A DNA stretch of 64,000 bases, from NCBI GenBank assembly GCA_045597865.1, contig JAZLKX010000028.1, positions 1-64,000 of the forward strand. Direction: 5' to 3'. Numbering within the stretch: position 1 is the stretch's first letter; each line of letters starts with the position of its first letter. Positions 28,479 to 64,000 of this stretch are shown piece after piece. Position numbers and translations under genes: made by a program. The stretch is from Bacilli bacterium. Lineage in GTDB: Bacteria > Bacillota_I > Bacilli_A > RFN20 > CAG-826. The notes beneath the pieces are model-generated. The model was not told where the DNA came from. It saw nothing but the letters and a program-made list of their open reading frames with translations, and searched no databases.

Positions 28479-28516
28479 AATTTTTATTATGGACTAAATG
28501 TAAAAAATAAACAAAC

Positions 28517-28540
28517 AAAAAAGACCTCCGAAGAGGTCTT
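28517..28540 (-). terminator. terminator of str operon
   Basis: AAGACCTC-TTCG-GAGGTCTT-TTTT. Confidence 0.93.
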
Positions 28541-28560
28541 GAATTTGTTAAATAATATAA

Positions 28561-29739: not shown

Positions 29740-29786
29740 TTGAATTTTCCTCCTTAAGGTTAGATTTCGTAAAATTCAACGAAATT

Positions 29787-29815
29787 ATAATAATGGAATT
29801 TATAACCTAAATCAA
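29787..29815 (-). promoter_or_regulatory. probable internal tuf promoter
   Basis: TTGATT-17-TATTAT in the fusA-tuf spacer. Confidence 0.5.
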
Positions 29816-29835
29816 TACATTTTGTATTAATTTGA

Positions 29836-31914: not shown

Positions 31915-31929
31915 AACTTATTTCTCCTA

Positions 31930-32400
31930 TTACCAACGGTAATGAGCATAAGCCTTGTTGGCTTCTGCCATCTTGTGTGTATCTTCTTTTTTCTTAACTG
32001 ATGCACCTGTTCCGTTTGCAGCATCGATAATTTCTCCGGCAAGTTTTTCTTCCATTGATTTTTCGTTTCTTAAACGGGCATAGGTGACTAACCAACGAAG
32101 TCCTAATGTAACTTTACGTTCTGCTGAAACTTCGACAGGGACTTGATAGTTGGCTGCGCCAATACGACGAACTTTAAGTTCGACTTCTGGCATAATGTTG
32201 TTGATTGCGGTTGCAAAGACATCCATTGCTGGTTTTCCAGACTTTTCTTCAATTCTCTTGAAGGCGTTATAAAGAATGGTTTGAGCAGTGCCTCTTTTTC
32301 CGTCAATCATAATACGATTGATTAATGCAGTGACCAATTTTGAATTATAAATTGGATCTGGCAAAACAGAGCGTTTTGCGACTTTACCTTTACGTGGCAT
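31930..32400 (-). CDS. rpsG: 30S ribosomal protein S7
   Basis: [36 protein letters not shown]. Confidence 0.99.
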
Positions 32401-32423
32401 ATTGTTTTCTCCTTTCTAAATAA

Positions 32424-32843
32424 CTATTCGGCTTTTCTTGGACGTTTGGTTCCGTATAAGCTTCTGCCTTGACGACGAGCTTCGATACCAGCACAGTCAA
32501 GAGTACCGCGAACGATGTGGTAACGAACACCTGGTAAGTCTTTAACACGGCCACCACGAATGATGACTGTGGAGTGCTCTTGTAAGTTGTGTCCTTCACC
32601 ACCGATGTATGCTGTGACTTCATATCCATTGGATAAGCGTACACGAGCGTATTTTCTAAGAGCTGAGTTTGGTTTCTTTGGTGTCATTGTTCCGACACGG
32701 GTACAAACGCCTCTCTTTTGAGCGGATGGTTGATCGCTTGTTGTAGATTTTAATGAATTCCATCTTTTACCAAGAGCTGGTGATTTGGACTTCTTCACTA
32801 ATCTTGAACGACCTTGTTTAACTAATTGATTAATAGTTGGCAT
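32424..32843 (-). CDS. rpsL: 30S ribosomal protein S12
   Basis: [30 protein letters not shown]. Start set at MPT behind SD AGGAGG. Confidence 0.99.
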
Positions 32844-32950
32844 TGATTGTCCTCCTTTCAATGATTCTATCTTATTGCACACATTCTCCGGTGTACCATA
32901 TTTCCGGTAAATATATAGACCCATCTCGGGTCCTTCGTGTGTCGACATAG

Positions 32951-32978
32951 ATTTTACTATCTATATATAGATTGTCAA
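32951..32978 (-). promoter_or_regulatory. rpsL operon promoter
   Basis: TTGACA-16-TAAAAT, followed by an approximately 100-nt leader with hairpins. Confidence 0.65.
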
Positions 32979-33009
32979 CAAATATTTTAATTATTATTTT
33001 TTAAATAAA

Positions 33010-33056
33010 GAAAAAGCTGGGTTTTAGGTTTCAAAAATTCCTATGTTTTCCCAGCT
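33010..33056 (-). terminator. terminator-like hairpin after metalloprotease
   Basis: AGCTGGG...CCCAGCT outer stem followed by TTTTCTTT. Confidence 0.5.
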
Positions 33057-34587
33057 ATTTTTTAGAAATCTCCACTTTTTCGAAGTCTATTTTGACTTTC
33101 GAGAACGTTGACCACTCGATTGAAATTTTGAATTCTAATTTGCCTTCTACATTCAAATTTAATTCAGGAATTTCATCACCATATCTGAAGAGGTTCGCGT
33201 CCACCGCTGCCCCTGCTTTCATTCCTTCTTCGTGATTTAAAATGAGGGAATAAAGATAATTTTCTTGGTACTTATCAGGCTCTAAATAGGTGTTATTATC
33301 GTGAGCAAATCCAACACTAATTTTTGAGGTTGGAGACATGCTTCCATAATCACAATAATCCTTGATTTTCTTGTTTTCGAAATAGGCGAGTCTTGCATCA
33401 ACATGATAAATTTTAACGCCTGGAACTCTAGGAAGTTTAGCCTCGCTATTCCCAACTGAAATATCATAAGAATTTAAACCAGTTGGAGTGTAATATTCAA
33501 ACAAATAATATTCATCAAATGGTGTGTGATTCCAATTGTTTGCAAGTAAAATTACATCACCTGTTTCGGTGAATGATTCAATCTCAATACCCGCGGTTGA
33601 ATTTACGTATGTTGGTTTTGTCCAATTAAGAAGCATCTTTGAAAAAGATGTTTCATCCCCAATTGAACAATCCATCATATCAATTCTGGCTGTTGGTTCT
33701 GGAATAACAAATTTATCGACCACTTCTTCCTCTTCGTCTTCTTCTGCTTTATCGGTTTTTTCTTCTGGAAAAATGGTTGGATAATAATCAGTTAATCCAA
33801 GCAAATGACCAGTTTCATGAATGTAAGTGTGAGCGTCTGGTTCACCATATTGTAAATACATAAATGATGAGCTAGACCATGAAAGTGGAACCTCACTAAA
33901 AGTGTAGGCCCAAAAGAAGCCAGATTCATCCTCTTTAGTATCAGAAATGCTAGGATGGGTATAAACCATGTAAATCGGCACGTTTTTGCCTGTTTTTAAG
34001 CCTTCTACTTCGTAGTCAGCGATATCATCATAATTTTCTTTGTACCAATCGATAACTTTTTTATAAACATCATTTGCTAAAGCATCACGATCTAATTTCT
34101 TTTCTCTAATCTTCTCGACAGAGTAAGGGAATGTATAAATCTTATCGCAAACTTTTCCATCAAGTTTTAATTTTCCATAACTTGATTTATTGAAGTATTC
34201 TCCTACCGAAACATAAGCATTGTTATTAGCAGATCCAAAGAAAGCTTTGTTAATTGCATCAATATATTGTTCATCACTAAGGAAAAGTTTATCTACTTTG
34301 TAGTCGCTAAATTCTACTGGTACAACAATAATCTTTTGTTCTCCAACAGATTTCAAATGACTTTGTTCAGCGTAATCTCTAAACATAGAGTAAGAATCAC
34401 CTAAATCAACTTCATTTTCACCTTTATTGTCCATAACTTTAAAGTTAAGGTATTCTTCTCTTGTGTCTTCTTTTTCTTGAATAAATTCAAAATGTACAAA
34501 TTTGTGTTCACCAAAATCACACCCAGATAAGGCTAAAGTACCCACGAGTGCGGTCGTAATAACAAACAAATTTCTTTTGAAATTCAT
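33055..34587 (-). CDS. M6/immune inhibitor A-like zinc metalloprotease lipoprotein
   Basis: ALSGC lipobox, VPVEFSD, SVGEYFNKSSYGKL, HETGHLLGLTDYY, DMMD, EYYLFEY, VKIYHVD. Confidence 0.85.
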   Translation of the reverse strand: MNFKRNLFVITTALVGTLALSGCDFGEHKFVHFEFIQEKEDTREEYLNFKVMDNKGENEVDLGDSYSMFRDYAEQSHLKSVGEQKIIVVPVEFSDYKVDKLFLSDEQYIDAINKAFFGSANNNAYVSVGEYFNKSSYGKLKLDGKVCDKIYTFPYSVEKIREKKLDRDALANDVYKKVIDWYKENYDDIADYEVEGLKTGKNVPIYMVYTHPSISDTKEDESGFFWAYTFSEVPLSWSSSSFMYLQYGEPDAHTYIHETGHLLGLTDYYPTIFPEEKTDKAEEDEEEEVVDKFVIPEPTARIDMMDCSIGDETSFSKMLLNWTKPTYVNSTAGIEIESFTETGDVILLANNWNHTPFDEYYLFEYYTPTGLNSYDISVGNSEAKLPRVPGVKIYHVDARLAYFENKKIKDYCDYGSMSPTSKISVGFAHDNNTYLEPDKYQENYLYSLILNHEEGMKAGAAVDANLFRYGDEIPELNLNVEGKLEFKISIEWSTFSKVKIDFEKVEISKK

Positions 34588-34705
34588 GCCTTTATTATAA
34601 CCAAATTTAACCAAAATAAAAGAACGAGTGAAAACTCACTTCATTTTTAGCCATAGAAGCTAGTCTTCGTATGGCTCGATTTTTCACCTATTTTCTTTTA
34701 AAAAG

Positions 34706-34737
34706 AAAAAGGTTACCGGAATTAACCAGTAACCTTT
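34706..34737 (-). terminator. rpoC terminator
   Basis: AAAGGTTACTGG...CCGGTAACCTTTTT. Confidence 0.85.
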
Positions 34738-34745
34738 AAGAAATT

Positions 34746-37700
34746 TTAGTCTTGATCTTCTGGACGATCGTGAACTTCAATATACTGTTTCTTAACTTCT
34801 TTCATTCTGTTCTTAACAGTGAATTTAGCTAAGGACTCTTCAGCTTCTTCTTCGGTTAATAAACCGGTACCTGCTGGAATGAGTTTACCAGTAATGACGT
34901 TTTCCTTAAGTCCATGGAGAGCATCGTGTTTTTCTTTAATTGATGCATCAGTAAGAACACGTGTTGTTTCTTGGAAGGATGCAGCTGATAAGAAGGACTT
35001 AGTTTCAAGAGCTGCCTTGGTAATACCAAGGATAAGTTGTCTTGCAACTGCTGGGCGTTTGCCTGTAAATAAGGCGTCTTCGTTTCTAGCTGTAAATTCT
35101 TCAATATCAAGTCTTGTTCCAGGAACCATGTCAGTATCACCACTATCGACGACAACAACTTTCTTAAGCATTTGTCTAACGATAACTTCGATGTGTTTAT
35201 CGGAAATTCCGATACCTTGAGCACGGTAAACCTTTTGAATTTCCTTGAGGATGTAGTTTTCAACACGAACGTTGTCACTAACTTCAAGTAATTGTTTTGG
35301 AGCAATAGCACCTTCGGTGATCTTACCACCATTGAACACGTGATCACCAACTTTGACTCTTAAGTGAGCACCATAGCTGGAGATGTATGTTCTTTCTTCA
35401 AGATCGTTCTTGACTGTGACGTGGTAACGTCCGCCTTGTTCTTCAATCTTAGCAATCTTACCATCGATTTCAGAAATGAGAGCTTCACCTTTTGGATTAC
35501 GTGCTTCAACAAGTTCTTGAACTCTTGGAAGACCTTGAGTAATATCTGAGCCAACAACACCACCGGTATTGAATGTTCTCATTGTTAACTGAGTACCTGG
35601 TTCACCAATGGATTGGGCTGCCATAATACCAACTGCTTCGCCTTTCTTGACGAGTTCGCCGGTAGCAAGGTTTTTACCATAACAATGGACACAAACACCA
35701 TTTTTAGTTTCACATCCGAATAATGAACGGATTTCAACTTCTTTGATGCCTGCTTTAACGATTGCTTTAGCATCGTTTTCACTAATCATTGTATTGGCTG
35801 GAACGATAACTTCACCATTTGCTGGGTTAACGATTGCTCTAAGAGAGAATCTACCAACAAGTCTATCTTCAAGTGGGACGATAACAGCATCACGTGAGCT
35901 ATCTCTAATTTCAAAGACTACGAAGCCATGGTCTGTTCCACAATCGTCTTCTCTAACGATAACGTCTTGAGAAACGTCAACAAGTCTACGTGTAAGATAA
36001 CCTGAGTCAGCTGTCTTTAAGGCTGTATCAGCACCACCCTTACGGGCACCGTGAGTTGCAATAAAGAACTCGGAGACAGAAGCACCTTCACGGAAACATG
36101 ATTTAACTGGTGTTTCAATTTCTTCACCTTTTGGGTTAGCCATAAGGCCACGAACACCGGATAATTGAAGAATGTTAGACATGTTACCACGAGCACCGGA
36201 ATCAGACATCATGAAGATTGGGTTACGTTTATCAGCATAGAATTGAACTTCAAGTTTATCCTTCGCTTCACTACGAACGCCATTCCAAATATCAACGATT
36301 TCTTTGTGGTGTTCTTCTTTAGTAAGAAGACCTTTAGAATAAAGTCTATTAATTTGATCGACTTTAACATCGCCTTTCTTAACGATTTCATCTTTACCTT
36401 TAAGCATTGGAATATCGCTAAGAGAAATTGTAAATCCTGCGCATGTAGAATACTTGAAACCTTGGTCTTTCATCTTATCAAGGACAGCTGATGTCTTTGA
36501 TGTACCATATCTATGGTAAATTTCATCAATGATTTGTCCAAGGTGTTTCTTCTTATATGGAGCATGGATTGGAGCGTTATGAATTGCTTCCTTGAGATTT
36601 GTTCCCATTGGTACAAAGTATTCAAGAAGATCACCTTTGAGGTTTTCTTTCTTGTCTGAGTCATTTAAGAATGGGAATTCTGCTGGGAAGATAAGGTTGA
36701 AGATAACTTTACCGACAGTTGTGAGTAAGTAAGACTTATTCATTTCTTCGGTGAAGCCTGTCTTCTTTAAGGCAGCACCCTTAATTGCGATTCTGGTGTG
36801 AAGGTGAGCTTGTTTTGTTTGATAAGCTGCGATAACTTCGTCAACAGATTTGAAGACTTTAGCTTCACAATTACCATAAATGGTAAAGAGCTCATATTCT
36901 TCCATATCGCCTCTGTCTTTTCTTCTACCTGCACGAGCAAGTAAATCTTCTTTGGTTTCTTCAAGAGTAAGGTAGTAGTTTCCTAAAACCATGTCTTGTG
37001 ATGGAGTAACGATTGGTTTTCCATCTTTAGGACCAAGAATGTTGTTTGATGCAAGCATCAAATTAAGAGCTTCTTGTTGGGCTGCTTTAGAAAGTGGAAG
37101 GTGAACGGCCATTTGGTCACCATCGAAGTCAGCGTTGAATCCTGTACAAACAAGTGGGTGAAGACGAATTGCACGTCCATCAACAAGTTTTGGTTGGAAT
37201 GCTTGAATACCAAGACGGTGAAGTGTTGGAGCACGGTTAAGAAGTACTGGGTGATCGCTAATAATCTCTTCGACAATGTCAAATACGATTGGTTCACGAG
37301 CATCAATAATTCTGTCAGCGGCTTTATGTGCGCTCACGTATCCGCGTTTAATTAAGAGGTTTGCAATGTATGGGCGTAAAAGGGAAATAGCCATTTCTCT
37401 TGGAAGTCCACATTGATACATCTTAAGATCTGGTCCAACGGCAATAACGGAACGACCTGAATAGTCGACACGTTTACCGAGTAAGTTCTGTCTGAAACGA
37501 CCTTGTTTACCCTTTAAGCTTGAGCTTAAGGATTTGAGTGGTCTTCCAGATGGACCTTGAACTGGTTTATTTCTACGACCGTTATCAATTAATGCATCAA
37601 CTGCTTCTTGAAGCATACGGCGGGCGTTCATTAAGATAACGTTTGGTGCGTTAATATCAATGAACTTTTTAAGACGTGTGTTACGCATGATGACTCTACG

Positions 37701-52472: not shown

Positions 52473-53735
52473 TTATTTTGCGTCAATAATGCGCTTTTTA
52501 TGTTTTGGACGTGCTGGTGTTTTAGGAGCTTTTTTCATTGCTTTCATGAACGATTCAGCAAGTCCACCTTTAGCTGTTTCACGGTATCTCTTGTTCAAAT
52601 CTTTTCCGGTTTTGTACATTGTTTCGACAACTGTATCAAACGAGACAGCATTTGATGCGTGAGCGTATTCTGCAAGTCTTCCAGCAGCAACTGCACGGAT
52701 TGCAGCAATAGCATTTCTTTCAATACACGGTATGATGACGTAGCCACCAACTGGGTCACAGGTCAAACCAAGTGAATGTTCCATAGCGACTTCTGCAGCA
52801 CATTCAATACCATCAATGTCTTCTTTTTTGAGATAAGCATAAGCTGCAGCAGCCATTGAACAAGCTGACCCAATTTCAGCCTGACAGCCTGCTTCAGCAC
52901 CTGCTAGAGAAGCGTTATATTTAATAACGTTACCAATAATTCCAGCGACCGCTAAGGCCTCAAGAATTGTTTGTCTTGGTTTTTTATACTTCTCGCCATA
53001 ATATTTCATTACCGAAGGTAAAACACCACAAGAACCACATGTTGGAGCAGTAACAACGACTCCGCCCGATGCATTTTCTTCACTAACAGCAAATGCATAG
53101 GCATACATCATTCTAAATGAGTTTCCGACTTCAGATTCGTCAACATAAAGGGATTTAAGGAAATCTTTAGCTCTACGTTGAACATGAAGTTTACCTGGAA
53201 GTTCTCCGGTTGCTTTAAGGCCCCTATCGATAGCGGCCATCATTGCGTCATAAACTTCACCAAGATAATCAAAGATTTCTTCACCTTCACGATTCACTAT
53301 GTAATCAACTAAAGTCCAGTTATTCTTTTCACAAACTTTACGGATTTCAGCAAAGTTCTTTTCTTTATAAATTTCTGGTTCTGGTGCGCTCTTTTCGTCA
53401 CCAATACGAATAGAACCGCCGCCTGGTGAAGTTGCCCATAAAATCTCATGAGTTCCGTCTTTATTATAAACATCAAACTTTACAGTATTTGGATGTTGTG
53501 TTTTAGTTTTGTAATCAAAATAAATGTTTGTTGGAATTGGAGCACACGAAGTGACAATAGCTTTATCAGTCATGTGACCTCTGCCAGTTAAAGCAAAAGA
53601 TCCAAATAATGTAACATCAAAATGATCTGCATTTGGGAAGTTTTTTACAGCATATTTTGAGATTCTTGAAGGTCCAATTGTATGTGAAGAGGAAGGACCA
53701 TTTCCTATACGGTATAAATAACGGATTGATTTCAT
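52473..53735 (-). CDS. sdaA: Fe-S L-serine ammonia-lyase (fused alpha/beta)
   Basis: GPSSSHTIGP, APTCGSCG, GCQAEIG, GLTCDPV, PCIERN, RETAKGGLA. Confidence 0.95.
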   Translation of the reverse strand: MKSIRYLYRIGNGPSSSHTIGPSRISKYAVKNFPNADHFDVTLFGSFALTGRGHMTDKAIVTSCAPIPTNIYFDYKTKTQHPNTVKFDVYNKDGTHEILWATSPGGGSIRIGDEKSAPEPEIYKEKNFAEIRKVCEKNNWTLVDYIVNREGEEIFDYLGEVYDAMMAAIDRGLKATGELPGKLHVQRRAKDFLKSLYVDESEVGNSFRMMYAYAFAVSEENASGGVVVTAPTCGSCGVLPSVMKYYGEKYKKPRQTILEALAVAGIIGNVIKYNASLAGAEAGCQAEIGSACSMAAAAYAYLKKEDIDGIECAAEVAMEHSLGLTCDPVGGYVIIPCIERNAIAAIRAVAAGRLAEYAHASNAVSFDTVVETMYKTGKDLNKRYRETAKGGLAESFMKAMKKAPKTPARPKHKKRIIDAK

Positions 53736-53774: not shown

Positions 53775-53804
53775 AAAAAAGCGGAGCTACGAAGTAACCC
53801 CGCT
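53775..53804 (-). terminator. terminator ending the catabolic operon
   Basis: AGCGGGGTTAC-TTC-GTAGCTCCGCTTTTTT. Confidence 0.8.
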
Positions 53805-53822: not shown

Positions 53823-54833
53823 TTAACGTCTATCTGATGGTTTCTTGTCGTGAACAAATAATGCCATAACAGCTTTAGCTGTGTGGATTCTGTTCTCAGC
53901 TTCTTGATAGACAACTGATTGTGGTCCATCAATAACTTCATCAACAACTTCGTTAACACGGTCTGCTGGAAGTGCATGCATGTAACGGCAGGTTGGTTTT
54001 GCAAGAGCCATTTTGTCTGGTGTACATTTCCATGCTTTTAAGGCAAGAAGTGCATCATCGACGACTGTGGTTGATTGGTTGGTGACCCATGAACCCCAGT
54101 TCTTTGGGAAGACAACATCAGCATCTTTATAAGCTGCATCCATGTCGTGAGTAATAGTGAGAGATCCACCATTTTCAGCGGCATTTTTGCGGGCTTTTTC
54201 GATAACCCAGTCTGGTAAATCATATCCTTCTGGGTATGCTAATGTGACATCAATTCCGTATCTTGGGAAGAGTAAAACTTGTGAAACTGGAACTGAAATT
54301 GGTTTCTTGTGTGTTGTGGCCATTGCCCAAATAACAGAGACCTTTAAGTTCTTAGTTTTGCCAAATTCATCTTCGATTGTCATTAAGTCTGCTAATGCTT
54401 GCATTGGGTGATATAAATCACATTGTAAGTTAATGATAGGAACTGTTGACCATTTGGCCATTTCACGGATGTATTTGTTTCCGAGTCCCCAGTTACAATA
54501 TCTACAAGCAATCATGTGACCGAATGAAGAAAGAATAACTGCAGTATCTTTTGCTGATTCACCATGAGCAATTTGCATCATTGATGTATCAAGGAATGTG
54601 GCGTGGCCACCTAATTGTGCCATACCTGATTCAAATGAGTTTCTTGTACGTGTTGATTGTTCAAAGAACATCAAGAAACCTGTTTTGCCCTCTAAGAAAG
54701 GCATTGGTTCGTTAGCATAGAAAGCATCCTTCATTTCATGGGATACTTTGAGCATGTAGTCGATTTCTTCCTTAGTAAAATCTTCTAAGGTAATAAGATG
54801 ACGACCTGCGAATCTTGGTTCGATTTTTTCCAT
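53823..54833 (-). CDS. carbamoyltransferase, knotted (YgeW/AOTCase-like) subfamily
   Basis: QSTRT, HPMQ, HALP, EAENR, plus WAMATTHKKPISVP and KNWGS segments typical of knotted transcarbamylases rather than classic ArgF. Confidence 0.85.
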   Translation of the reverse strand: MEKIEPRFAGRHLITLEDFTKEEIDYMLKVSHEMKDAFYANEPMPFLEGKTGFLMFFEQSTRTRNSFESGMAQLGGHATFLDTSMMQIAHGESAKDTAVILSSFGHMIACRYCNWGLGNKYIREMAKWSTVPIINLQCDLYHPMQALADLMTIEDEFGKTKNLKVSVIWAMATTHKKPISVPVSQVLLFPRYGIDVTLAYPEGYDLPDWVIEKARKNAAENGGSLTITHDMDAAYKDADVVFPKNWGSWVTNQSTTVVDDALLALKAWKCTPDKMALAKPTCRYMHALPADRVNEVVDEVIDGPQSVVYQEAENRIHTAKAVMALFVHDKKPSDRR

Positions 54834-54844
54834 TTTCTATACTC

Positions 54845-56065
54845 CTATTTTTGTTTTGCTAAATTCTCGAGGTAAAGTCCTGGAATTGTAGCGTATAAAG
54901 CTGCACAAATGACAAGATCTTGTTTACGTGTCTTTTCATTTGGTGCGTGAGCTTCTTTTTCATCACCTGGGCCGAAGCCTAAGCAAGGAATTCCAAAACG
55001 TCCACAGATTGAGACGCCATTGGTTGAGAATGTCCACTTATCAATAACTGGAGCTTTTCCAAAGAGTCCTTCGTAACCTTGTTTTAAGGATTGAACGTAG
55101 ATTGATTCCTCTGGAATAACCCAAGTTGGGAAGTAACATTCTTGTTTATAAACTAATCCAGTGTAGGCTGGACGTTCATAATCATACATTGTGACTTCTG
55201 CTTTAGCAGCTTTAACTGCTGGTAAGTTTTCGATTTCGGCAATTGATGTCTTATCGTTTTCACCAACTGTTAAACGTCTATCAAGTGAGATCCAGCAACC
55301 ATCAGCAACTGCACAGCGGCTTGGTGATTTGTGGAAAATTTGGGAAATAGTAACAGTACCTTTTCCTAAGAATGGATCATAGGCAAGACCTGTTTCGTTA
55401 AGTTCCTTAACTTGATTAATAATGTCTGCCATTTTGTAAATAGCATTATCGCCACGTTCTGGTGCAGAACCATGGCAGGAAATACCACGGACGTTGACTT
55501 TGATTTCCATACGTCCACGGTGACCACGATAGATTTGGCAGCTTGTTGGTTCAGTTGAAACAACGAATTCTGGTTTAATCTTATCTTGTTCAATAATGTA
55601 TTTCCAGCAAAGACCATCACAGTCTTCTTCTTGAACAGTACCTGTTACAAGAAGTGTGTAATCATCTTCAAGGCCTAAATCTTTAATGATTTTGCCTGCA
55701 TAGACCATTGAAGCCATACCACCTTCTTGGTCTGAAGTTCCACGTCCACCAATGTAGACATCATCTTCAAAACCTTCATATGGATCGAACTTCCAGTTCT
55801 TAATTTCGCCAATACCGACTGTGTCGATATGTGCGTCCATAGCGATGAGGTGTTTACCATGGCCAATATAGCCCATTACGTTGCCCATTGGGTCGATTTC
55901 GACTTTGTCAAAACCAACTTTGAGCATTTCTTCTTTAATGCGGAGAACGACATCTTTTTCTTCACATGATTCTGATGGAATCTTAACCATGTCACGAAGG
56001 AATTTTGTCATATCAGCCTTATATGATTCGGCTTTCTTGAGGATTTCTTCGAATGAAACTTTCAT
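54845..56065 (-). CDS. ygeY: YgeY-family M20 hydrolase
   Basis: [54 protein letters not shown]. Confidence 0.9.
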
Positions 56066-57435
56066 TATTTGATTTCCTTTCCACGCATTTCTTTAATCTT
56101 CTTATCGTATTCGAAGACTTTGTTATATTCTGCTTCCCAGAATTCTGGTTTTCTCATGGCATCAAGATATTCTTGTTTGTAGCCGAATTTTAACCAGTCT
56201 GATTCTTTTTGTTTGAAGAGTTTTTCTTTAGCTTCTGCTCCACGTGTATCTAAGATATAGGAACCATCAGCGCCCATAAAGACGTCGTTGAACCATCTCT
56301 CTAAAACGTGATCAGTAACTTCGAGTTCTCTATCATGGAGGTTCTTAATGACTGATGGGTATCTATCAAATGAGTCGGTTGCGATTGTAACGACGTTGTC
56401 GTTTGGACCGAGTTTGAGATATTTTGCCATCTTGATAGCTCCAAGAATATTACAAATACCGGAGACACCAAAGAGGTCTACCATTGAATCTGCAACTTTT
56501 GCTGGAACACCATGTGCTTTAAGGATTTCTTTACCTTCATGGATAACTGCTAAACCACGAACACAATCATCATCGATGATTTGGGTGATGAAGTCAGTTG
56601 TTAAGGCGTTGTGAATAAGAGTAATCATCTTATCGCCAATACCTTCAATTCTGTGTTGTCCTAAACCACCATTGGTGAGTGTTGAACATTCATGTGGTTC
56701 AAGAGCTGCAATTTTACATTCTGGGAATGCAACTTTAATTTGGTCGCCTGCTGCTAAAGTACCGGCTGAGCCTGGTGCTGAACAGAAACATGCGATACGA
56801 CCATTACCAATACCTTTAACAGCTTCGATACAGGAATTACCAGTAACGTGTCTGTGGAAACGATAGTTTGGTAAAAGCTCAAATTGAGCTAAAGTTCTAT
56901 TCATTGGGTTCTTCTTAAGTTCGTATGTTCTTTCAAGTGTAAGAATAACGTCTGATTCTGAACCTGGTGTCAAATCAAGTTTTGCACCGTATTTTGAAAT
57001 ACGTTCATATCTTTCTTTTGACATGTTGTCTGGCATAATGACGATTGCATCATATTTCATCAAGTTTGTGATGTAAGAAACGCCAATACCAAAGTTGCCT
57101 GTTGAAGGGCCGAGAATTGTGTGTTTTCCTGGGATAATTTCGCCATCAACACATCCTTCCATAAGTGTTGAATAAGCTGGACCAACTTTGTGTGATCCAG
57201 ATGGAAAATACTTACCAAGTAAGACAACGATATTTGCGTCTACACCTGTAAGTTCCTTAGGAAGTACAATTTTATTAACTTCGTCTTTATCATTCTTCCA
57301 TGTGATATTGAAGAGGTTAATTGGGTCAAGTTCATTTGCCTTGATTGCTTTGAGAGCATCTGCTCTGACTTTAGGATCTTGATGTGATGGATTTAACATT
57401 TCATCATACGTAGGTCCAAATGGAATTTTTGACAT
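56065..57435 (-). CDS. PLP-dependent fold-type II enzyme (cysteine-synthase-like, function unknown)
   Basis: FPSGSHKVG (PLP lysine), [23 protein letters not shown], with a long C-terminal extension. Confidence 0.8.
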
Positions 57436-57436
57436 T

Positions 57437-58681
57437 TTAAATTGCTCCTTTTTGTCTTAAATACTCATCCAATTTGTCCATGTTAGGTTCAAGTGGATCA
57501 GGCATGGATACCGCCTTTTGTCCGTTGACTGGGTCTTTTAGACCATTACCAGTCACGATAGTAGTAACTGTTTCATTAGGTTTGATGATGCCTAATTCAA
57601 CAGCCTTTTTGATGCCTGCAATTGCGGCAACACCGGCAGGTTCACCGAAGATACCTTCGGTTCTTCCGAGTAAACCCATTGCTTTAATGATATCACTATC
57701 AGGCACTGAAACCCAAGCACCATTACTGAATTTAATTGCATTAAGTGCTTTAATAGGGTTTCTTGGGATGCCAACTGCAATAGAGTCAGCAAGAGTGTTT
57801 TCATCTGCTTCTTTGAGTGGTTCACCTGTTTCACTTGAAATAACAAATGGACAACATCCAGTAGATTGAACACCAAAAATTTTTGGAATTCGTTTGATTA
57901 AACCTAACTTATGGAATTCCATAAATCCTTTGTATACGCCACCAACTGTGCATCCGTCACCAACAGATACAGCTACCCAATCAGTAGGTTCCCAGTTAAG
58001 TTGTTCGGCAATTTCCATAGAAACTGTCTTTTTACCTTCAACCATGAATGGGTTTATGGCAGCATTACGGTTGTACCAACCGTATTTATCGATAGCAGCT
58101 TTAGAAAGTTGGAATGCGGCTTTATAGTCGCCGTCAACTTTCACTAAAGTAGCACCGTATAAACAAATTTGCGTGGCTTTGCCAATAGGTGCTCTTTTTG
58201 GGACGAAAATAACTGCTTTGAGTCCCATATGAGCTGCTTGACAAGCACAGCTTGATGCGGCGTTTCCTGTAGAAGAACAAGCAATAACTTTTGCTCCAGC
58301 TTCAACAGCCTTTAAGACTGCAACACCAGAAGCTCTATCTTTGCTTGATCCACTTGGATTTAAGCCATCATCTTTTACGTATAGCTTTGCTACACCTAAT
58401 TCTTTCTCTAAATTTCTTGCATGATAGAGTGGAGTCCATCCGACTCTTAACATTTCATCGATGTGATCTTCTTTAATTCCCATGATAGGTGCATAACGCC
58501 ACATTGAGTAATTACGGTTGTTAGAAAAGTATTCTTTGGTAAGTACTTTTTTAAGCTCATCGTAATCATAGATTACGTCAAGGATGCCTTTTTCGCCACA
58601 GTGAGGACAGGTTAAACCTACTTCACCTTCTTTAAATTCGGCACCACAGATCGTACAACGATAACCTTTAATATAACTCAT
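57437..58681 (-). CDS. threonine synthase-like PLP enzyme
   Basis: N-terminal CxxC/CxxC, NPSGSSKDR, SSTGNAA, EGKKT, VGDG, TGNGLKD. Confidence 0.85.
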   Translation of the reverse strand: MSYIKGYRCTICGAEFKEGEVGLTCPHCGEKGILDVIYDYDELKKVLTKEYFSNNRNYSMWRYAPIMGIKEDHIDEMLRVGWTPLYHARNLEKELGVAKLYVKDDGLNPSGSSKDRASGVAVLKAVEAGAKVIACSSTGNAASSCACQAAHMGLKAVIFVPKRAPIGKATQICLYGATLVKVDGDYKAAFQLSKAAIDKYGWYNRNAAINPFMVEGKKTVSMEIAEQLNWEPTDWVAVSVGDGCTVGGVYKGFMEFHKLGLIKRIPKIFGVQSTGCCPFVISSETGEPLKEADENTLADSIAVGIPRNPIKALNAIKFSNGAWVSVPDSDIIKAMGLLGRTEGIFGEPAGVAAIAGIKKAVELGIIKPNETVTTIVTGNGLKDPVNGQKAVSMPDPLEPNMDKLDEYLRQKGAI

Positions 58682-59532
58682 TATTTACCTCCTACAACTT
58701 TGTCGATAAATTCTGAAACGATGTTCATTGCAACTTTATGACGGTATTCAGCATTTGAACGTTGGTCATCAATTGGAGTAATGATTTTTCCATACTTCTC
58801 AATGAACTCATTTTTACGAGCTTTTAATTCAGAAACTGATAAGCCAATAATTTCTTTTTCGATGTCATGAGAACGGACTGCTTTAATTGAGACAGAACCG
58901 AAAGATAATGCAAATTTCTCGACGATTTTCCCGCGAATTCCCCAATATCCTGCTACCATGACCTTAGAAATTGAATCGGCTTTTCTTGAGCCAACTTTCC
59001 ACCACATATCACCTAAATAATCAAGTTTTGGGAAGATAAGTTCAGTGATTAATTCATCTGGATGACGATCAATTTTTCTAACGCCAAGAACAAAGTTTTC
59101 GACGTCAACAAGTCTTTCACCATTTACTGACTCAAGTTTAACTTTTGCATCAAGTAAGAAATCAACAACAATTGTGTCACCTGCTGGAGATGCGTTTGCA
59201 AGGTTTCCAGCAAGTGTTGCAAAGTGTCTAATGTTTGCTGATGCAACTTGGCTAACTGCTTTCTTTAATAATGCAGGTGTAAGTTTTGAATTTAAGACTT
59301 CATCAAGAGTTGTGCCAGCTTTGACATGAACTCCTGCTTCGTCTTCATAAATACCTTTTAATTCATCAATGTGTGATGTGTATAAAATGTCTTTATCAAA
59401 CTTAGGTGCTAAACCTGCAGTGTTTTTCTTCATGACCATGAGGTCAGAACCGCCTGCTACTATGTAGCAATCGTGCTTAGAAAGGACTTCTAATGCTTCT
59501 TTTTTAGAAGTTGGAATGTATTTTTCTACCAT
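58681..59532 (-). CDS. xanthine dehydrogenase family FAD-binding subunit
   Basis: AGGSDL, IRHFATLAGNLANASPAGD, PIDDQRSNAEYR. Confidence 0.92.
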   Translation of the reverse strand: MVEKYIPTSKKEALEVLSKHDCYIVAGGSDLMVMKKNTAGLAPKFDKDILYTSHIDELKGIYEDEAGVHVKAGTTLDEVLNSKLTPALLKKAVSQVASANIRHFATLAGNLANASPAGDTIVVDFLLDAKVKLESVNGERLVDVENFVLGVRKIDRHPDELITELIFPKLDYLGDMWWKVGSRKADSISKVMVAGYWGIRGKIVEKFALSFGSVSIKAVRSHDIEKEIIGLSVSELKARKNEFIEKYGKIITPIDDQRSNAEYRHKVAMNIVSEFIDKVVGGK

Positions 59533-59996
59533 AATCCTGCTCCTTTCTTAGCAGCTTTTAAGACTGCTTCAACGATTGCTTGATAACCTGTACATCTGCA
59601 AAGGTTACCAGACATTTCTTCTCTAACTTGTGCCTCGGTTGGATGAGGATTGTGTTTGAGAAGTGAGTAGGCTGCAATGATCATTCCTGGAGTACAGAAA
59701 CCACATTGTGAGCCACCCATTTCAGCAAATGCTTGTTGTAAAACATCAAATGCTTTTGTTTCTTTTAAACCTTCAATTGTAACGAAGTCATGGCCAATTG
59801 CGTTTGCAACTGGAAGTAAGCATGAGTTAACGGATTTGCCATCCATTAAAACAACACATGCTCCACATGAGCCTTCACCACATCCTTCTTTGGTGCCATT
59901 GAGGTGTAAAACGTCTCTAACAACATCAAGGAATCTCATGGATGGATCGACATCAATTTCAACAGGTTTTCCATTCATATTAAAATTAATTTTCAT
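59526..59996 (-). CDS. xanthine dehydrogenase family [2Fe-2S] subunit
   Basis: GCGEGSCGAC...SC, QCGFCTPG, GNLCRCTGY. Confidence 0.95.
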   Translation of the reverse strand: MKINFNMNGKPVEIDVDPSMRFLDVVRDVLHLNGTKEGCGEGSCGACVVLMDGKSVNSCLLPVANAIGHDFVTIEGLKETKAFDVLQQAFAEMGGSQCGFCTPGMIIAAYSLLKHNPHPTEAQVREEMSGNLCRCTGYQAIVEAVLKAAKKGAGLW

Positions 59997-62082
59997 GTTT
60001 CATAACCTCCATAAGATATTCAGGATTTGCAGGGATTTTTGAAATTTTTCGGCCAATTGCGTTCTCAATTGCGAGTGCAACAGCAGGTGCTCCACCAACC
60101 AATGTGAGCTCGCCCATTCCCTTTGCTCCGTTAGCGCCATAGATAAATGGATTATCGATGAATGCTGTTTCCATATGAGGAGCATCTTCAAATGTTGGAA
60201 TGATGTAATCAGATAAGTTTCTGTTTCTCATTCTTCCATCAACACATTTCATTTCTTCTAAGTAGCCATAGCCAAGTCCTTGGAGTAATCCTCCATCAGC
60301 TTGACCTACAGCAATTCTTTCGTCTACAACTCGACCAACGTCATAAGTTGACCAAGTATTTAAGACCGATACTTGATATGTAACTGGATTGAATTCAACT
60401 TCAACTACGTTGACACCCCAAGAATAACCTGGATAAGCATCACCTTGCATTGTATCTTCATCCCAATGGATGTAGCTTGGTCCAACGTAAGGTTCGACGT
60501 ACTCTTGTCTTTCTCCGCTCTTCCAAATTTCTTTTAAGTGTTTTGCACACTTCTCAAATAAGAAGCCGACAATAATTATTGTACGTGATGCAGCTGTTGG
60601 TCCAGAGTCAGGAGTGTGGTCTGTATCAGGTGCTTCAAATGAAACTTGATCTTCTGGGAGACCTAAAGTATTTGAAACAATCTTCTTAAGTGTTGTGCGG
60701 TTACCTTGACCAAAATCAACTGGTGCGGCGTAACAATAAACATGGTCATGTTCATCTTTAACAAGTTTTACTTTGCCGTGAATGATGTCTGACTCACCTG
60801 AACCAGTAAATCCGCAACCATGGAGGAAGATGGACATACCAATGCCTTTATTACAACCTGGTTTTGAATAAGTTTTTAGCTTACGTTTGTAATCTGACAT
60901 CTTCATAGCCTTTTCCATAAGTTCTTTTAGAATGATTGGATCATGGAAATGACCGTTATTTGCAGTTACATCACCTTGCTTTGCAAGATATTTAAATCTA
61001 AGTTCTAGAGGATCAACTCCAAGTTCTTTTGCAACGTGATGAATGAACATTTCCATTGCAAAGATTGTTTGAGGAGAACCGAAACCTCTAAATGCTGCAG
61101 TTGGAGTTGTGTTTGTCATATAGACATCTCCAACAACATCTAAATTTTCAAATACATAAGCATTTGATGAAGCAATTAAAGCACGAGAAAGAACAACACC
61201 AGAGCATCCTTTGTATGCTCCGCCATTTAATCCGACTCTAATCTTTAATCCTAAAATATTGTTGTCTTTATCAACTAATGCTTCATATTCACTAAGTGAA
61301 GGATGGCGTTTTGTTGTGAAAGTAATGTCTTCAGCACGTTCAAAACACATCTTAACTGGTTTATGAAGTGCTAAAGCAGCAACTGCTACTTGTGAGCCAA
61401 TCATTGATGGATAGTGTTCCTTACCACCAAAGGCTCCACCGACTGCTGGTTGGATTACTCTAACTTCGTCATCTTTAAGTCCGCAGGATCTCATAACTGC
61501 ACGCTTAATATAGAAAGGACATTGCATTGAACCTGTGAGTGTGAGTTTATCGTTCTCATCAAAGTAACAAATGATGCCTTGGTTCTCTAAGTAAGCTTGC
61601 TCTTGATAACCTGTTTCGTAAGTATGTTTGATTACCTTAACTGCTTTAGCTTTTGCAGCCTCGTAATCGCCCTTCTTAAATGCCTTGTGAATGTAGCTTT
61701 CAGTTAACTCATAAACAGGGGTTTCTTCTTCATAATCAATTTTGATCTCGGAAGCCAATTTATCCAGGATTTCCTTGTCTTTTCCAACAAAAATACCTAT
61801 GGATTCCCCAATAAAGTTAACTCTTCCAGCTGCAAAGACAGGCCAGTCTGAGAAGATAATATTAACGACGTTTTCGCCCTTAATATCATCAGCACAGAAC
61901 CAGTGATATCCTTCTGGCATTTTAGGAAGTGTTATCTTCTTAATTTTTCCACGAGCCACTGTAGATCTAACAGTCTTCGCGAAAAGCACATCTGGGAAGC
62001 TAATATCATCTGTGAACTTAGCTTCACCACGAACCTTTTCAGGAAAGTCTACCTTTGCTGTGGAAGTTTTAAATTTATCCAT
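59986..62082 (-). CDS. xanthine dehydrogenase family molybdopterin-binding subunit
   Basis: QAYLE, GGAFGGK, AFRGFG, GQG, SGPTAASR, AKGMGE. Confidence 0.93.
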   Translation of the reverse strand: MDKFKTSTAKVDFPEKVRGEAKFTDDISFPDVLFAKTVRSTVARGKIKKITLPKMPEGYHWFCADDIKGENVVNIIFSDWPVFAAGRVNFIGESIGIFVGKDKEILDKLASEIKIDYEEETPVYELTESYIHKAFKKGDYEAAKAKAVKVIKHTYETGYQEQAYLENQGIICYFDENDKLTLTGSMQCPFYIKRAVMRSCGLKDDEVRVIQPAVGGAFGGKEHYPSMIGSQVAVAALALHKPVKMCFERAEDITFTTKRHPSLSEYEALVDKDNNILGLKIRVGLNGGAYKGCSGVVLSRALIASSNAYVFENLDVVGDVYMTNTTPTAAFRGFGSPQTIFAMEMFIHHVAKELGVDPLELRFKYLAKQGDVTANNGHFHDPIILKELMEKAMKMSDYKRKLKTYSKPGCNKGIGMSIFLHGCGFTGSGESDIIHGKVKLVKDEHDHVYCYAAPVDFGQGNRTTLKKIVSNTLGLPEDQVSFEAPDTDHTPDSGPTAASRTIIIVGFLFEKCAKHLKEIWKSGERQEYVEPYVGPSYIHWDEDTMQGDAYPGYSWGVNVVEVEFNPVTYQVSVLNTWSTYDVGRVVDERIAVGQADGGLLQGLGYGYLEEMKCVDGRMRNRNLSDYIIPTFEDAPHMETAFIDNPFIYGANGAKGMGELTLVGGAPAVALAIENAIGRKISKIPANPEYLMEVMKHEN

Positions 62083-63179
62083 TATTTAGCCCCCTTGTGA
62101 TAAGTAAGTGCTTTGACTGGACATTTGCTAACACAAAGACCGCATCTGAAACATTTCTCAGAATTGAACTTTGGAGTTCCGTCCATTTCTATTGCGAAAT
62201 AAGGACAGATTCTGGCACATGTGCCACACTTGCTACACTTTGTAGCATCAACTGTTGGAGCTTCGCCCATTTCATAGCGAAGTTCTTGATGTAAACCTGT
62301 CTTTATAACATCTTCGACTGATTTGAATCCATACTTTTCAAGTGTTGCTGGGAGGTCAGCAATAATCTTGGCATAGAGTTCTTTTCCACGGAGCATAGCT
62401 GCAGACAACATTTGAACTGCACTTGCACCTGCGAGTAAGAATTCGATGACATCACTTGCAGAAGCAATACCACCAACACCAATAACGGTTAAGGATGGTT
62501 CTGCTTTCTTAATTGTATAGACTGTTGCTAAAGCAATATTCTTAATGTATGGTCCAGAGGTCCATGCAAATCCTTTAGCGTTTCCATAAATAATCTCTCT
62601 ATTAGCAATATCAATTTTCATTGATGGTCCTAATGAGTTAACTGCAACAACACCATTTGCGCCATTAACTTTAATTGTATGGGCAAATCCTTCTGGATCT
62701 GGCATATGAGCAGATATCTTCATATAGAATGGCTTTTTGGTAAGTCTTCTAATTGTTGCGACTGTTTCGCCTAATTGATTTAAGTCATTTCCGACGTAGT
62801 GAGTTGAAACTTCGAATGCATCTGCGAATTTATCGAGTAAAGGAATTAACACTTCCATATCTTCTTTGGTATAACCAACTGAAATAATAAGAGGCTTACC
62901 AATTGAGTTTTTCTTATAGAAAGGTAAAAATTCATTAATCCATTTTTCTTTGCTGTATTCTGTCCAGAGTTCACAGTTCATAATGTAATCACGATCGCCG
63001 TAAATACATGGGTGTGGAATGTGAGCATCTTTTGTTGAAATAGTTTTTGCAACAATTGCGCCACAACCTGCAACCTTCTCTAACCAGAGCATTTTTTCTG
63101 CATCGCCAACGACTGGTCCAGCAGCTGGCATAAGTGGATTTTCAAGTACTAATCCGTCAAACTTTGTAGATATGTCCAT
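62082..63179 (-). CDS. dihydroorotate/dihydropyrimidine dehydrogenase-like FMN protein with C-terminal 2x[4Fe-4S] (PreA-like)
   Basis: LENPLMPAAGP, AKT, SGP, IGVGGI, AGASAVQ, CSKCGTCARICP, CFRCGLCVSKCP. Confidence 0.85.
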   Translation of the reverse strand: MDISTKFDGLVLENPLMPAAGPVVGDAEKMLWLEKVAGCGAIVAKTISTKDAHIPHPCIYGDRDYIMNCELWTEYSKEKWINEFLPFYKKNSIGKPLIISVGYTKEDMEVLIPLLDKFADAFEVSTHYVGNDLNQLGETVATIRRLTKKPFYMKISAHMPDPEGFAHTIKVNGANGVVAVNSLGPSMKIDIANREIIYGNAKGFAWTSGPYIKNIALATVYTIKKAEPSLTVIGVGGIASASDVIEFLLAGASAVQMLSAAMLRGKELYAKIIADLPATLEKYGFKSVEDVIKTGLHQELRYEMGEAPTVDATKCSKCGTCARICPYFAIEMDGTPKFNSEKCFRCGLCVSKCPVKALTYHKGAK

Positions 63180-63181
63180 TG

Positions 63182-64000
63182 TTATTTTCCTCCTTTAACT
63201 TTGGCCCATAAATTATCAGCATATTGTCTAGCCTCAATAACTTGATTTACTAAGGATTTGCTGGTGATTTTGTAGTTTTTCACGCGTTTTTTACCATAAG
63301 TGTAGACATCGCTTGGTTTGAAATTTGGGAACAATCCAAACACGATGTGACCGAGTGCGTTGGTCTCGTCCATCTTGGTAAATGGAGTGTATTGAACTCT
63401 CATAAAGTCGGCTTCATAACCAGACTTAAATTCACCAAGTTTTACACCTAATCTATCTCCAACATATTTGTAAGAGTTTCTAATCATCTTTTGGATGTCA
63501 CCAACGCCTAATGCAGTTGGAGAGCCTGCTCTTACATGTCCAGAGAACAAAACGTTCATGTATTCACTTGCCATGTTGGAATTTAAACCATCATTTCCAA
63601 CCATGACTGGAATATTGTGATCAATGTAGTTTTTAACATAAGGTAAACCAACTGCATTGTTCATATTTGAGGTTGTGTTAACAACCATATAACATTTATT
63701 TTTGGCAATGATGTCGAGTTCTTCATCTTTAAGATGGACACCATGAACGATAAGTGAATTTGGAATTAAGATTCCTGCTTCATCAAATCTTTCAATAATT
63801 GATTTTCCATATTTAGCATAGCTATCTTCTTCATCCATTTCAGATTCTGAAACGTGAACGTGAACTGGAACACCATTTTGAACTTTTGCGATACTCTTTA
63901 GAGTCTTATCTGAAATTGACATTGAAGCGTGCATTCCAAATAATCCTTCACCTGGATACTTTCTAGCAAAGCTAGAGTTCTCTTTTAAACAAGCTTTTAC
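63182..64000 (-). CDS. ssnA: SsnA-like amidohydrolase (5' truncated by the window edge)
   Basis: Frame is open to base 64000 (...ENSSFARKYPGEGLFGMHAS); HVHVSE, HGVHL, SNMNNAVG, GNDG, GHIVFG. Confidence 0.8.
   Translation of the reverse strand, partial: VKACLKENSSFARKYPGEGLFGMHASMSISDKTLKSIAKVQNGVPVHVHVSESEMDEEDSYAKYGKSIIERFDEAGILIPNSLIVHGVHLKDEELDIIAKNKCYMVVNTTSNMNNAVGLPYVKNYIDHNIPVMVGNDGLNSNMASEYMNVLFSGHVRAGSPTALGVGDIQKMIRNSYKYVGDRLGVKLGEFKSGYEADFMRVQYTPFTKMDETNALGHIVFGLFPNFKPSDVYTYGKKRVKNYKITSKSLVNQVIEARQYADNLWAKVKGGK

Follow-up and report, generated by a model that had tools for sequence, protein, structure and literature searches.

The stretch of DNA analysed here (the window: 64,000 nucleotides, positions 1 to 64,000 of the 108-kb contig JAZLKX010000028.1, called C28 below, from the Bacilli bacterium assembly GCA_045597865.1) ends inside a minus-strand operon of 16 genes, about 16.9 kb long, which occupies contig positions 53,823-70,735. 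We propose, with a probability of about three in four, that this operon encodes a small-genome ('Mollicute-type') version of the reductive uric-acid/2,8-dioxopurine pathway. The assignment is made from sequence: the gene set matches the published pathway step for step, and the corresponding clusters of related bacteria hold adenine deaminase. What is unpublished in this version is a pair of pyridoxal phosphate (PLP) enzymes at the place of DpaL (YgeX), an OTC-like carbamoyltransferase, the missing selenium trait, and the missing biosynthesis of the molybdenum cofactor (Moco) together with a linked S-component of the energy-coupling factor (ECF) transporter type.

Proposed assignment of the operon to urate breakdown

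The lower two thirds of the operon lie in the window, as nine minus-strand open reading frames (ORFs) running from 53,823 to the window end, neighbours overlapping by up to 11 nt or lying up to 11 nt apart. The operon ends at a terminator-like hairpin (53780..53804, minus strand; 11 pairs, of which 6 are G-C, a loop of 3, then TTTTTATTTG), a type of site that is not enriched in the region overall (8 found, 7.7 expected). A preliminary description of the sequence had reported this arrangement, at least nine genes on one strand, overlapping or at most 11 bp apart, with one terminator, and Pfam and NCBIfam agree with the domain content that it named (carbamoyltransferase, YgeY, CysK-like, ThrC-like, an Xdh trio, a DHODH/PreA-like protein and an SsnA-like protein). 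It also pointed to hyuA and mocA as genes to look for beyond position 64,000, and just upstream there are indeed HyuA-like and MocA-like genes, along with a second Xdh set.

Two 2025 preprints (10.1101/2025.04.24.650524 and 10.1101/2025.05.19.654654) describe a reductive urate route in which XdhD (DOPDH) converts urate to 2,8-dioxopurine, which is then reduced by YgfK or, in C. difficile, by the PydA-like UacX. The same texts assign ring opening to SsnA and HyuA, and removal of the two ureido groups to YgeW (or UacY) and YgeY; YgeX/DpaL then produces pyruvate, while ATP is obtained through YqeA. SsnA served Li et al. (2025 preprint) as a marker of reductive urate clusters. A tblastn-type search of the genome with the E. 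coli proteins recovered homologues of all the pathway enzymes except YgeX and YgfK. The E. coli K-12 genes (xdhABC / ygeW-ygeX-ygeY-hyuA-yqeA / mocA-ygfK-ssnA-ygfM-xdhD) likewise include two Xdh-family enzymes, MocA, SsnA, a HyuA-type enzyme, YgeY and a carbamoyltransferase. The present system differs from them in having two PLP enzymes for YgeX/DpaL, a proposed UacX-type reductase for YgfK, an OTC-like enzyme for the YgeW type and an XdhD-like enzyme split into three subunits, in lacking SelD, YqeB, YqeC and Moco biosynthesis, and in including an ECF S-component gene in the operon. With these homologues in one operon, and a YgeY 72% identical to that of E. coli, its earlier classification as a variant of the ygeW/ygeY/ssnA/xdh system stands.

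We infer the individual steps from homology and gene position. Molybdenum hydroxylase 2, of the xanthine-dehydrogenase type, would oxidise hypoxanthine and xanthine to urate. It is composed of a molybdenum subunit, Mo2 (59986..62082, minus strand, as are all operon genes; 698 aa), a 2x[2Fe-2S] subunit (59526..59996, 156 aa; Fer2 and Fer2_2 domains, 41% identity to E. coli XdhC) and a flavin adenine dinucleotide (FAD) subunit (58681..59532, 283 aa; FAD_binding_5 and CO_deh_flav_C domains, best E. coli match XdhB). Mo2 is 25% identical to E. coli XdhA and scores below the NCBIfam XdhA cut-off (345 against 780); among proteins of solved structure it is nearest to bovine xanthine oxidase/dehydrogenase (220 bits). 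Aligned to 3sr6_C, with the offset checked on 1fo4, it keeps equivalents of Glu802, Arg880, Phe914 and Glu1261 of bovine XOR, which we take, in this numbering, to be the catalytic and purine-binding residues. We propose that Mo2 belongs to a true xanthine/hypoxanthine dehydrogenase.

Molybdenum hydroxylase 1, of the split XdhD-YgfM type, would strip the 6-oxo group from urate to leave 2,8-dioxopurine. Its molybdenum subunit, Mo1 (65780-68095, 771 aa), is nearest to E. coli XdhD, at 36% identity (487 bits) against 33% to XdhA, and its best solved relative is the alpha subunit of 4-hydroxybenzoyl-CoA reductase (326 bits), a reductive dehydroxylase. The partner genes encode a 2Fe-2S subunit (68095-68547, 150 aa) and an FAD subunit, FAD1 (68547-69314, 255 aa), whose best E. 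coli match is YgfM.

The 2,8-dioxopurine would then be dearomatised by a 365-aa protein (62082..63179) made of a DHODH/PreA-like flavin mononucleotide (FMN) barrel and two 4Fe-4S domains (DHO_dh and Fer4 x2), which we propose to be a UacX-type 2,8-dioxopurine reductase. It fits the published description of UacX, the likeness being one of description and not of compared sequences, and in the syntenic clusters of two relatives (G214 and G176) its slot is occupied by a YgfK homologue (41-42% identity to E. coli). A profile search of the contigs found no YgfK in its own genome. In the C. difficile urate cluster, which has the PydA-like UacX and the D-aminoacylase-like UacY (10.1101/2025.05.19.654654), YgfK is similarly replaced, again by description, with a small FMN and Fe-S reductase devoid of the FAD/NAD(P)H module. 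Unlike that cluster, the operon keeps a phosphorolytic carbamoyltransferase in place of the hydrolytic UacY, and has FAD subunits on both molybdenum enzymes. The small flavoprotein, initially taken as a novelty, thus matches a type of YgfK replacement that has already been published.

Opening of both rings, to 2,3-diureidopropionate, would fall to two amidohydrolases. The SsnA-like protein (63182-64474, 430 aa, of which the C-terminal 272 aa are in the window at 63182..64000) shares 31% identity with E. coli SsnA along 385 residues, and NF005540 is by far its best family match, with 333 bits, below the cut-off of 444. The HyuA-like hydantoinase (64476-65780, beyond the window, 434 aa) is 27% identical to E. 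coli HyuA and reaches 214 bits with TIGR02033, below the cut-off of 393.

One ureido group would next be phosphorolysed to carbamoyl phosphate by the carbamoyltransferase at the YgeW position (53823..54833, 336 aa). This protein had been called knotted and different from YgeW. The difference is confirmed, with 193 bits against a cut-off of 453 for the YgeW model NF005538 and 183 against 500 for TIGR03316; the knot, judged by score alone, is not supported, as the protein scores as OTC-like and fails the YgeW models. It also stays under the cut-off of the OTC model TIGR00658 (256.7 bits, cut-off 280.85). Identity to E. coli YgeW is 35.5%, and the best match in the PDB is P. furiosus OTC, with 213 bits against 163 for E. 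coli YgeW (3q98). In an alignment to 1pvv the motifs STRTR, HPMQ and HALP are kept and the SMG loop of OTC reads GSW; presumably STRTR/HPxQ/HxLP serve carbamoyl phosphate and the SMG loop serves ornithine binding. We did not find an OTC-like carbamoyltransferase replacing YgeW in print. As anticipated, carbamoyl phosphate could give ATP, via a carbamate kinase encoded elsewhere in the genome, on contig C21.

The other ureido group would be hydrolysed by YgeY, an M20 hydrolase (54845..56065, 406 aa) that scores 686 bits with TIGR03526, well over the cut-off of 321.5. The ThrC-like and CysK-like pair would finally replace DpaL/YgeX, turning 2,3-diaminopropionate into pyruvate and ammonia.

An adenine deaminase gene lies inside the cluster of four relatives (G214, G145, G001 and G176). 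Relatives' clusters are also followed by a CDA-fold guanine-deaminase-like gene (G001, L102 18795-19283, plus strand) or by an NCS2 purine permease gene (G176, L124 5-1285, minus strand), which further supports purine substrates.

The possibility that the operon degrades another N-heterocycle, such as a pyrimidine, a modified base or a hydantoin, has in its favour the resemblance of the PreA/DHODH-like and dihydropyrimidinase-like proteins to reductive pyrimidine enzymes, and the scores of most operon members, which fall below equivalog cut-offs. We nevertheless consider it very improbable: a canonical PreT-PreA pair is already present elsewhere in the genome (PreA, 629 bits), YgeY is close to that of E. 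coli, the Glu and Arg that bind xanthine are retained in Mo2, adenine deaminase sits in relatives' clusters, YgfK fills the PreA-like slot of syntenic clusters, and the published C. difficile urate cluster relies on a PydA-like reductase of this very kind. The preliminary suggestion of an undescribed pathway, or of another ring substrate, is thus not retained, as the gene set maps onto the reductive urate pathway published in 2025.

The PreT-like and PreA genes, of which preT was among those searched for, lie on contig C21 at about 26,310-34,791 (L013 6310-14791). This region also holds NADP-glutamate dehydrogenase, serC, a serA-like gene and the genome's only carbamate kinase, followed by an ECF ATPase/T module; the PreT-PreA group may serve a reductive breakdown of pyrimidines that is independent of the purine operon.

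Several points weigh against the urate assignment. Most members remain below curated family cut-offs, among them the SsnA-like (333/444), HyuA-like (214/393) and MocA-like (122/186) proteins, and the XdhA model (623/780). The allocation of two molybdenum enzymes to two redox steps depends on identities of 25-37%, the presence of two PLP enzymes in place of one has no explanation, related genomes are not independent samples, and absences in the window's own bin (1.74 Mb, 96.9% complete, 5.4% contamination) are weak when taken alone. RNA libraries of three studies contain contigs that cover the operon with identities of 90-99%, and some of these contigs, 2.7-2.9 kb long, span several genes; they are compatible with transcription and do not prove it. 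This comparison used assembled contigs only, and we attach no weight to depth differences or uncovered stretches.

The PLP pair at the DpaL position

The two PLP enzymes are encoded next to YgeY, by a CysK-like gene (56065..57435, 456 aa, with N- and C-terminal extensions) and a ThrC-like gene (57437..58681, 414 aa, with an N-terminal Cys4 zinc ribbon), and both are fold-type II proteins with a PALP domain. They share the fold type and the place in the cluster with DpaL/YgeX (TIGR03528), and differ from it in being two proteins, one with a zinc ribbon and the other with long extensions. The earlier statement that DpaL is missing and that two other PLP enzymes are there instead is correct, since the best TIGR03528 match in the genome is the ThrC-like protein itself, with 34 bits against a cut-off of 532.

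Relatives of the CysK-like protein were found in at least 545 species genomes, including those of rumen, horse-gut and marine-sediment bacteria and complete genomes of cultured Izemoplasma-type strains. We surveyed the loci of the best 80 of them (73-93% identity), counting homologues at a coverage of at least 50% and E <= 1e-10. The neighbourhood combination of CysK-like, ThrC-like and ygeY genes had been proposed for such a survey. Both PLP genes were present in 74 of the 80 loci, at a coverage of at least 90% and, in the main layout, with a spacing of -4 to +8 nt, and YgeY in 73. YgeW-like proteins were counted in 68 loci, SsnA in 58, HyuA in 57, YqeA in 7 and YgfK in 5; a YgeX homologue was found in none of the 80. 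A true YgeW (65-68% identity) was present in 9 loci, and therefore the PLP pair also occurs in otherwise canonical clusters.

A sample of the window's phylum, made of 299 evenly drawn and scored genomes, contained 23 with YgeY over cut-off; these are kin genomes, so the counts do not amount to a statistical test. The CysK-like gene was present in 22 of the 23 (identity at least 70% in 20 of them and 39% in 2), none of which had DpaL, and the twenty-third had a DpaL-like gene beside YgeY. The 22 genomes with both YgeY and the CysK-like gene are called carriers below.

The CysK-like protein reaches 130 bits against a cut-off of 351 for TIGR01139 and 129 against 344 for TIGR01136, outside the CysK/CysM families; it keeps the PLP lysine and the Asn-loop, its mean column identity over 24 diverse sequences is 81%, and its long extensions are as conserved as the core. 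The ThrC-like protein, with a zinc ribbon of the form CxxC...CxxC at residues 9-28, passes the thrC model TIGR00260 (212.7 bits, cut-off 167.1) and keeps the PLP lysine, and its D242 is invariant. Compared to T. thermophilus ThrC it carries T88A, S155A and R160M/L, and an invariant D replaces N188; we take these four positions to form the phosphate site for O-phosphohomoserine. Because all four are changed, and despite the thrC score, we conclude from sequence comparison that the ThrC-like protein is not a threonine synthase. An acidic residue at the N188 position would be a fitting partner for an amino substituent, for example the one in diaminopropionate.

It could be argued that the pair has a side function, making cysteine, serine or threonine from intermediates, and that diaminopropionate is handled by another enzyme or excreted. 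The score of the ThrC-like protein over the thrC cut-off would fit, as would the database labels of the pair, threonine synthase and cysteine synthase, and the presence of cysS and an L-serine ammonia-lyase gene just downstream of the operon. This seems improbable to us, given that in 74 of 80 loci the two genes are part of purine clusters, with almost no spacing between them in the main layout, that the pair is complementary to DpaL (22 against 1 of the 23 YgeY-positive genomes, and DpaL in none of the 80 loci), that it is also found in clusters with true YgeW, YgfK and YqeA, that the ThrC-like protein has lost the phosphate-binding residues, and that the CysK-like protein fails the cysK model. 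The database names for CysK-like relatives are generic ('PLP-dependent enzyme' or 'cysteine synthase'), and both enzymes of the pair are mislabelled in public records, as threonine and cysteine synthases.

From its position, its conservation and its complementarity to DpaL, we infer that the pair stands in for DpaL; its chemistry could take several forms. If it does replace DpaL, it might combine a racemase or epimerase with a stereospecific lyase, or it might carry out a beta-replacement to serine or cysteine followed by deamination, and we put forward these two schemes with equal reserve; a two-subunit lyase, for which the single fusion record described below may speak, appears unlikely. Bilophila is said to use two enzymes, a cysteate racemase and a D-cysteate sulfo-lyase, on a beta-substituted alanine, and this serves as an analogy only for the racemase-plus-lyase scheme. 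The upstream enzymes of the pathway are described as D-specific in one 2025 preprint. In 11 of the 80 loci, which all belong to the closest lineage, the cluster is followed by a gene for an L-serine ammonia-lyase homologue, which could be an accessory enzyme if the pair yields serine. We found no published description of a ThrC-like and CysK-like pair replacing DpaL, in a search that left out the supplementary tables of the preprints.

In one metagenome record, P0275 (914 aa), a ThrC-like half that has the zinc ribbon (45% identity to the window's protein) is joined to a CysK-like half (39%). The fusion may be genuine, or a one-base error may have produced it, since the two genes normally overlap. 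Two further single records contain longer CysK-like forms, apparently fused to a PTPS-related membrane domain and to an amidohydrolase. An apparent fusion of CysK-like protein and carbamate kinase in L091 was rejected, as a stop codon separates the genes.

Selenium, molybdenum cofactor and the S-component

According to Liu et al. (2025 preprint), every strain of theirs that bears the cluster has SelD and YqeBC. The window's genome gave no profile match for SelD or YqeB, and no tblastn match for YqeB or YqeC with the E. coli proteins; SelD was over cut-off in 2 of the 22 carriers. The version of the purine pathway described here thus seems to be selenium-independent. The 2025 preprints present anaerobic urate breakdown as ending with YgeX and depending on selenium. 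The present version ends differently and is devoid of the selenium trait, and therefore surveys or probiotic designs that start from the genes of E. coli or Clostridium would miss or misjudge it.

The preliminary description also found a molybdoenzyme operon unexpected in a lineage with reduced genomes, and this remark proved fruitful: tblastn with the E. coli proteins gave nothing for MoaA-E, MoeA, Mog or ModA in the window's genome. Among the 22 carriers, MoaA, MoaC and MoeA_N were over cut-offs in the same three genomes only (G001, G176 and G227), and MoaA, MoaC and MoeA were not found in the other 19, which include genomes of 1, 1, 2 and 2 contigs. Five larger genomes with a canonical-type cluster all had MoaA.

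A MocA-like cytidylyltransferase is encoded in the operon (69311-69880, 189 aa; 28% identity to E. coli MocA, 122 bits with TIGR03310, below the cut-off of 186), and a MocA-like gene heads the cluster in all five cofactor-less relatives checked. Relatives' clusters hold in addition an XdhC-type chaperone and a small P-loop NTPase. With the Moco genes missing while MocA, usually together with XdhC, is kept, an external source of the cofactor is most likely: the carriers, apparently unable to make Moco, probably import it. An animal, C. elegans, reportedly takes up Moco from its diet.

In molybdenum-enzyme modules of two phyla, a gene for the P-loop NTPase (157-177 aa, Pfam NTPase_1) regularly comes after that for the S-component or XdhC (L101 14124-14597, minus strand; L099 3558-4067, plus strand; L124 17777-18253, minus strand; also L113 and L115-L119); the NTPase is absent from the window's genome. 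As a guess, it might be a MobB-like helper of MocA.

Organisms with 'orphan' molybdoproteins were described by Peng et al. (2018, PMC6147048), who proposed unknown biosynthetic components for them and listed the Tenericutes/Mollicutes as non-users of molybdenum. The present carriers resemble these organisms, as described there, in having molybdoenzymes without a Moco pathway or a molybdenum transporter, and differ from them in keeping MocA and XdhC and in having a candidate importer linked to these genes.

The candidate importer is the product of the first gene of the operon (70004-70735), a membrane protein of 227-243 aa. It belongs to no Pfam family; 390 cluster representatives were collected at E <= 0.001 from 1.84 billion proteins, and five alignment columns are invariant, among them G14, E21, G25 and K76. 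The AF2 model has a pLDDT of 95.5. In a VIA structural comparison the top 15 matches were all ECF S-components, with Z-scores of 10.4 to 7.0, 149-178 residues aligned and root-mean-square deviations of 3.6-5.1 A, which places the protein in the six-helix fold; the first unrelated rows appeared from Z 7.0 down. Foldseek gave top matches of the same family with E-values of 0.1-0.9, and it is the VIA Z-scores, not Foldseek, on which the fold assignment rests. Known S-components (FolT 4z7f, RibU 3p5n, BioY 4dve, ThiT 3rlb, BtuM 8ovv) have the same six-helix fold; the operon protein differs from them in having no sequence family and in being tied to Xdh-type molybdoenzymes, MocA, XdhC and the P-loop NTPase. 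A shared energising EcfA1/EcfA2/EcfT module is present in the genome, with the EcfA proteins over cut-offs (TIGR04520, 340 bits; TIGR04521, 357 bits) and an EcfT-like protein at 85 bits, under the CbiQ-model cut-off of 111.8.

In the 299-genome sample the S-component was present in 19 genomes, all of them carriers, and in none of the 277 others. Eighteen of the 19 carriers without Moco biosynthesis have it, and it is missing in G001 and G227, two of the three with biosynthesis; the syntenic cluster of G001 lacks both the S-component and the P-loop NTPase. The gene lies between those for Mo1 and XdhC in G214, G145, G102 and G176. The G244 copy lies outside the purine cluster, is transcribed divergently from an XdhC-like gene and has no molybdenum-subunit or purine-catabolic homologue near it. 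A second phylum (401-genome sample) yielded 9 genomes with the S-component, and 8 of these 9 copies are in modules of MocA, an Xdh trio, and the NTPase or XdhC, without ring-opening genes in the vicinity.

The typical substrates of ECF S-components are vitamins, cofactors or metals. Judging from the structural model and these associations, the operon protein may import the cofactor or a pterin, an assignment to which we give somewhat less than even odds; import of something else, or of a substrate not yet recognised, is doubtful. The same reserve as for cofactor import applies to the wider proposal that the carriers and some Clostridia-like bacteria are Moco auxotrophs living on scavenged cofactor, the S-component importing Moco or a molybdopterin precursor. 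Three points weigh against it: MoaA and MoeA are both present in 5 of the 9 second-phylum genomes with the S-component, G176 has Moco biosynthesis as well as the S-component, and no Moco or purine riboswitch was found. For the latter, the operon head and four relatives' clusters gave no Rfam match at gathering level for a Moco, purine or other riboswitch, and a single sRNA match was at chance level. A strict complementarity of S-component and Moco biosynthesis was rejected, as it holds in the window's own phylum (18 of 19 against 1 of 3) and fails in the second, where 5 of 9 have both.

The S-component could also import the catabolic substrate itself, urate, xanthine or another purine, in which case the gaps in Moco biosynthesis would reflect an unknown biosynthetic route, such as the components proposed for orphan molybdoproteins by Peng et al. 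(2018, PMC6147048), or unassembled DNA. The window's genome has no NCS2 or AzgA-type purine permease, the S-component gene always accompanies Xdh-type enzymes whose substrates are probably purines, and 5 of the 9 second-phylum carriers of the S-component make their own Moco. Yet NCS2 permeases are also present in 16 of the 19 S-component carriers, the G244 gene is away from the purine cluster and points away from an XdhC-like gene, in 8 of 9 second-phylum loci the S-component is surrounded by genes for maturation (MocA, XdhC, P-loop NTPase), and four genomes that are closed or nearly so have no MoaA, MoaC or MoeA. Purine import therefore appears doubtful to us. The absence of purine permeases as a reason for the S-component was rejected, the two not being complementary (the same 16 of 19). 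The preliminary description had also listed ygfK, yqeB, yqeC, selD and a nucleobase permease as genes to look for, and none of these was found in the 96.9%-complete genome.

We found no S-component for molybdopterin in print. If cofactor import is true, the S-component would be the first bacterial cofactor importer of this kind and would explain the orphan-molybdoprotein genomes of 2018, and microbial cofactor sharing would add Moco to the vitamins traded in gut and sediment communities. Molybdenum enzymes kept with MocA and XdhC and without cofactor synthesis make the orphan-molybdoprotein puzzle testable, as a candidate transporter and cultured carriers exist.

Genomic setting and neighbouring genes

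The gene order of the operon recurs in related loci of many species, and the arrangement is therefore not due to chance. Within the family of the window's genome, the cluster genes (CysK-like, YgeY and S-component) were present in just 4 of the 26 sampled genomes, and the only other sampled species of the genus (G286) has none of the three. Because of this patchy distribution and of the absence in the congener, the operon is accessory and probably laterally acquired in the lineage of the window.

Downstream of the terminator are the genes for an L-serine ammonia-lyase of the Fe-S type (52473..53735, minus strand; TIGR00720, 369.6 bits, cut-off 345.1), cysS and rlmB. Beyond the operon head there is a divergent gene for a second ECF S-component, of the folT family (C28 70,873-71,424, plus strand; L003 8873-9424; folT/RibU-like at 43 bits, below cut-off), and then smpB. 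Just upstream of smpB lie two very large minus-strand ORFs of 1755 aa and 902 aa (C28 71,897-77,164 and 78,262-80,970; L003 9897-15164 and 16262-18970), which had no NCBIfam match at E <= 1e-8.

Sequencing runs containing the stretch were made on samples of animal gut and faeces. Eight contigs of the bin, of 1-1.8 kb (C2, C14, C30, C31, C42, C45, C50 and C58), have a G+C content of 59-66%, against 31-43% in the large contigs, and are likely bin contamination.

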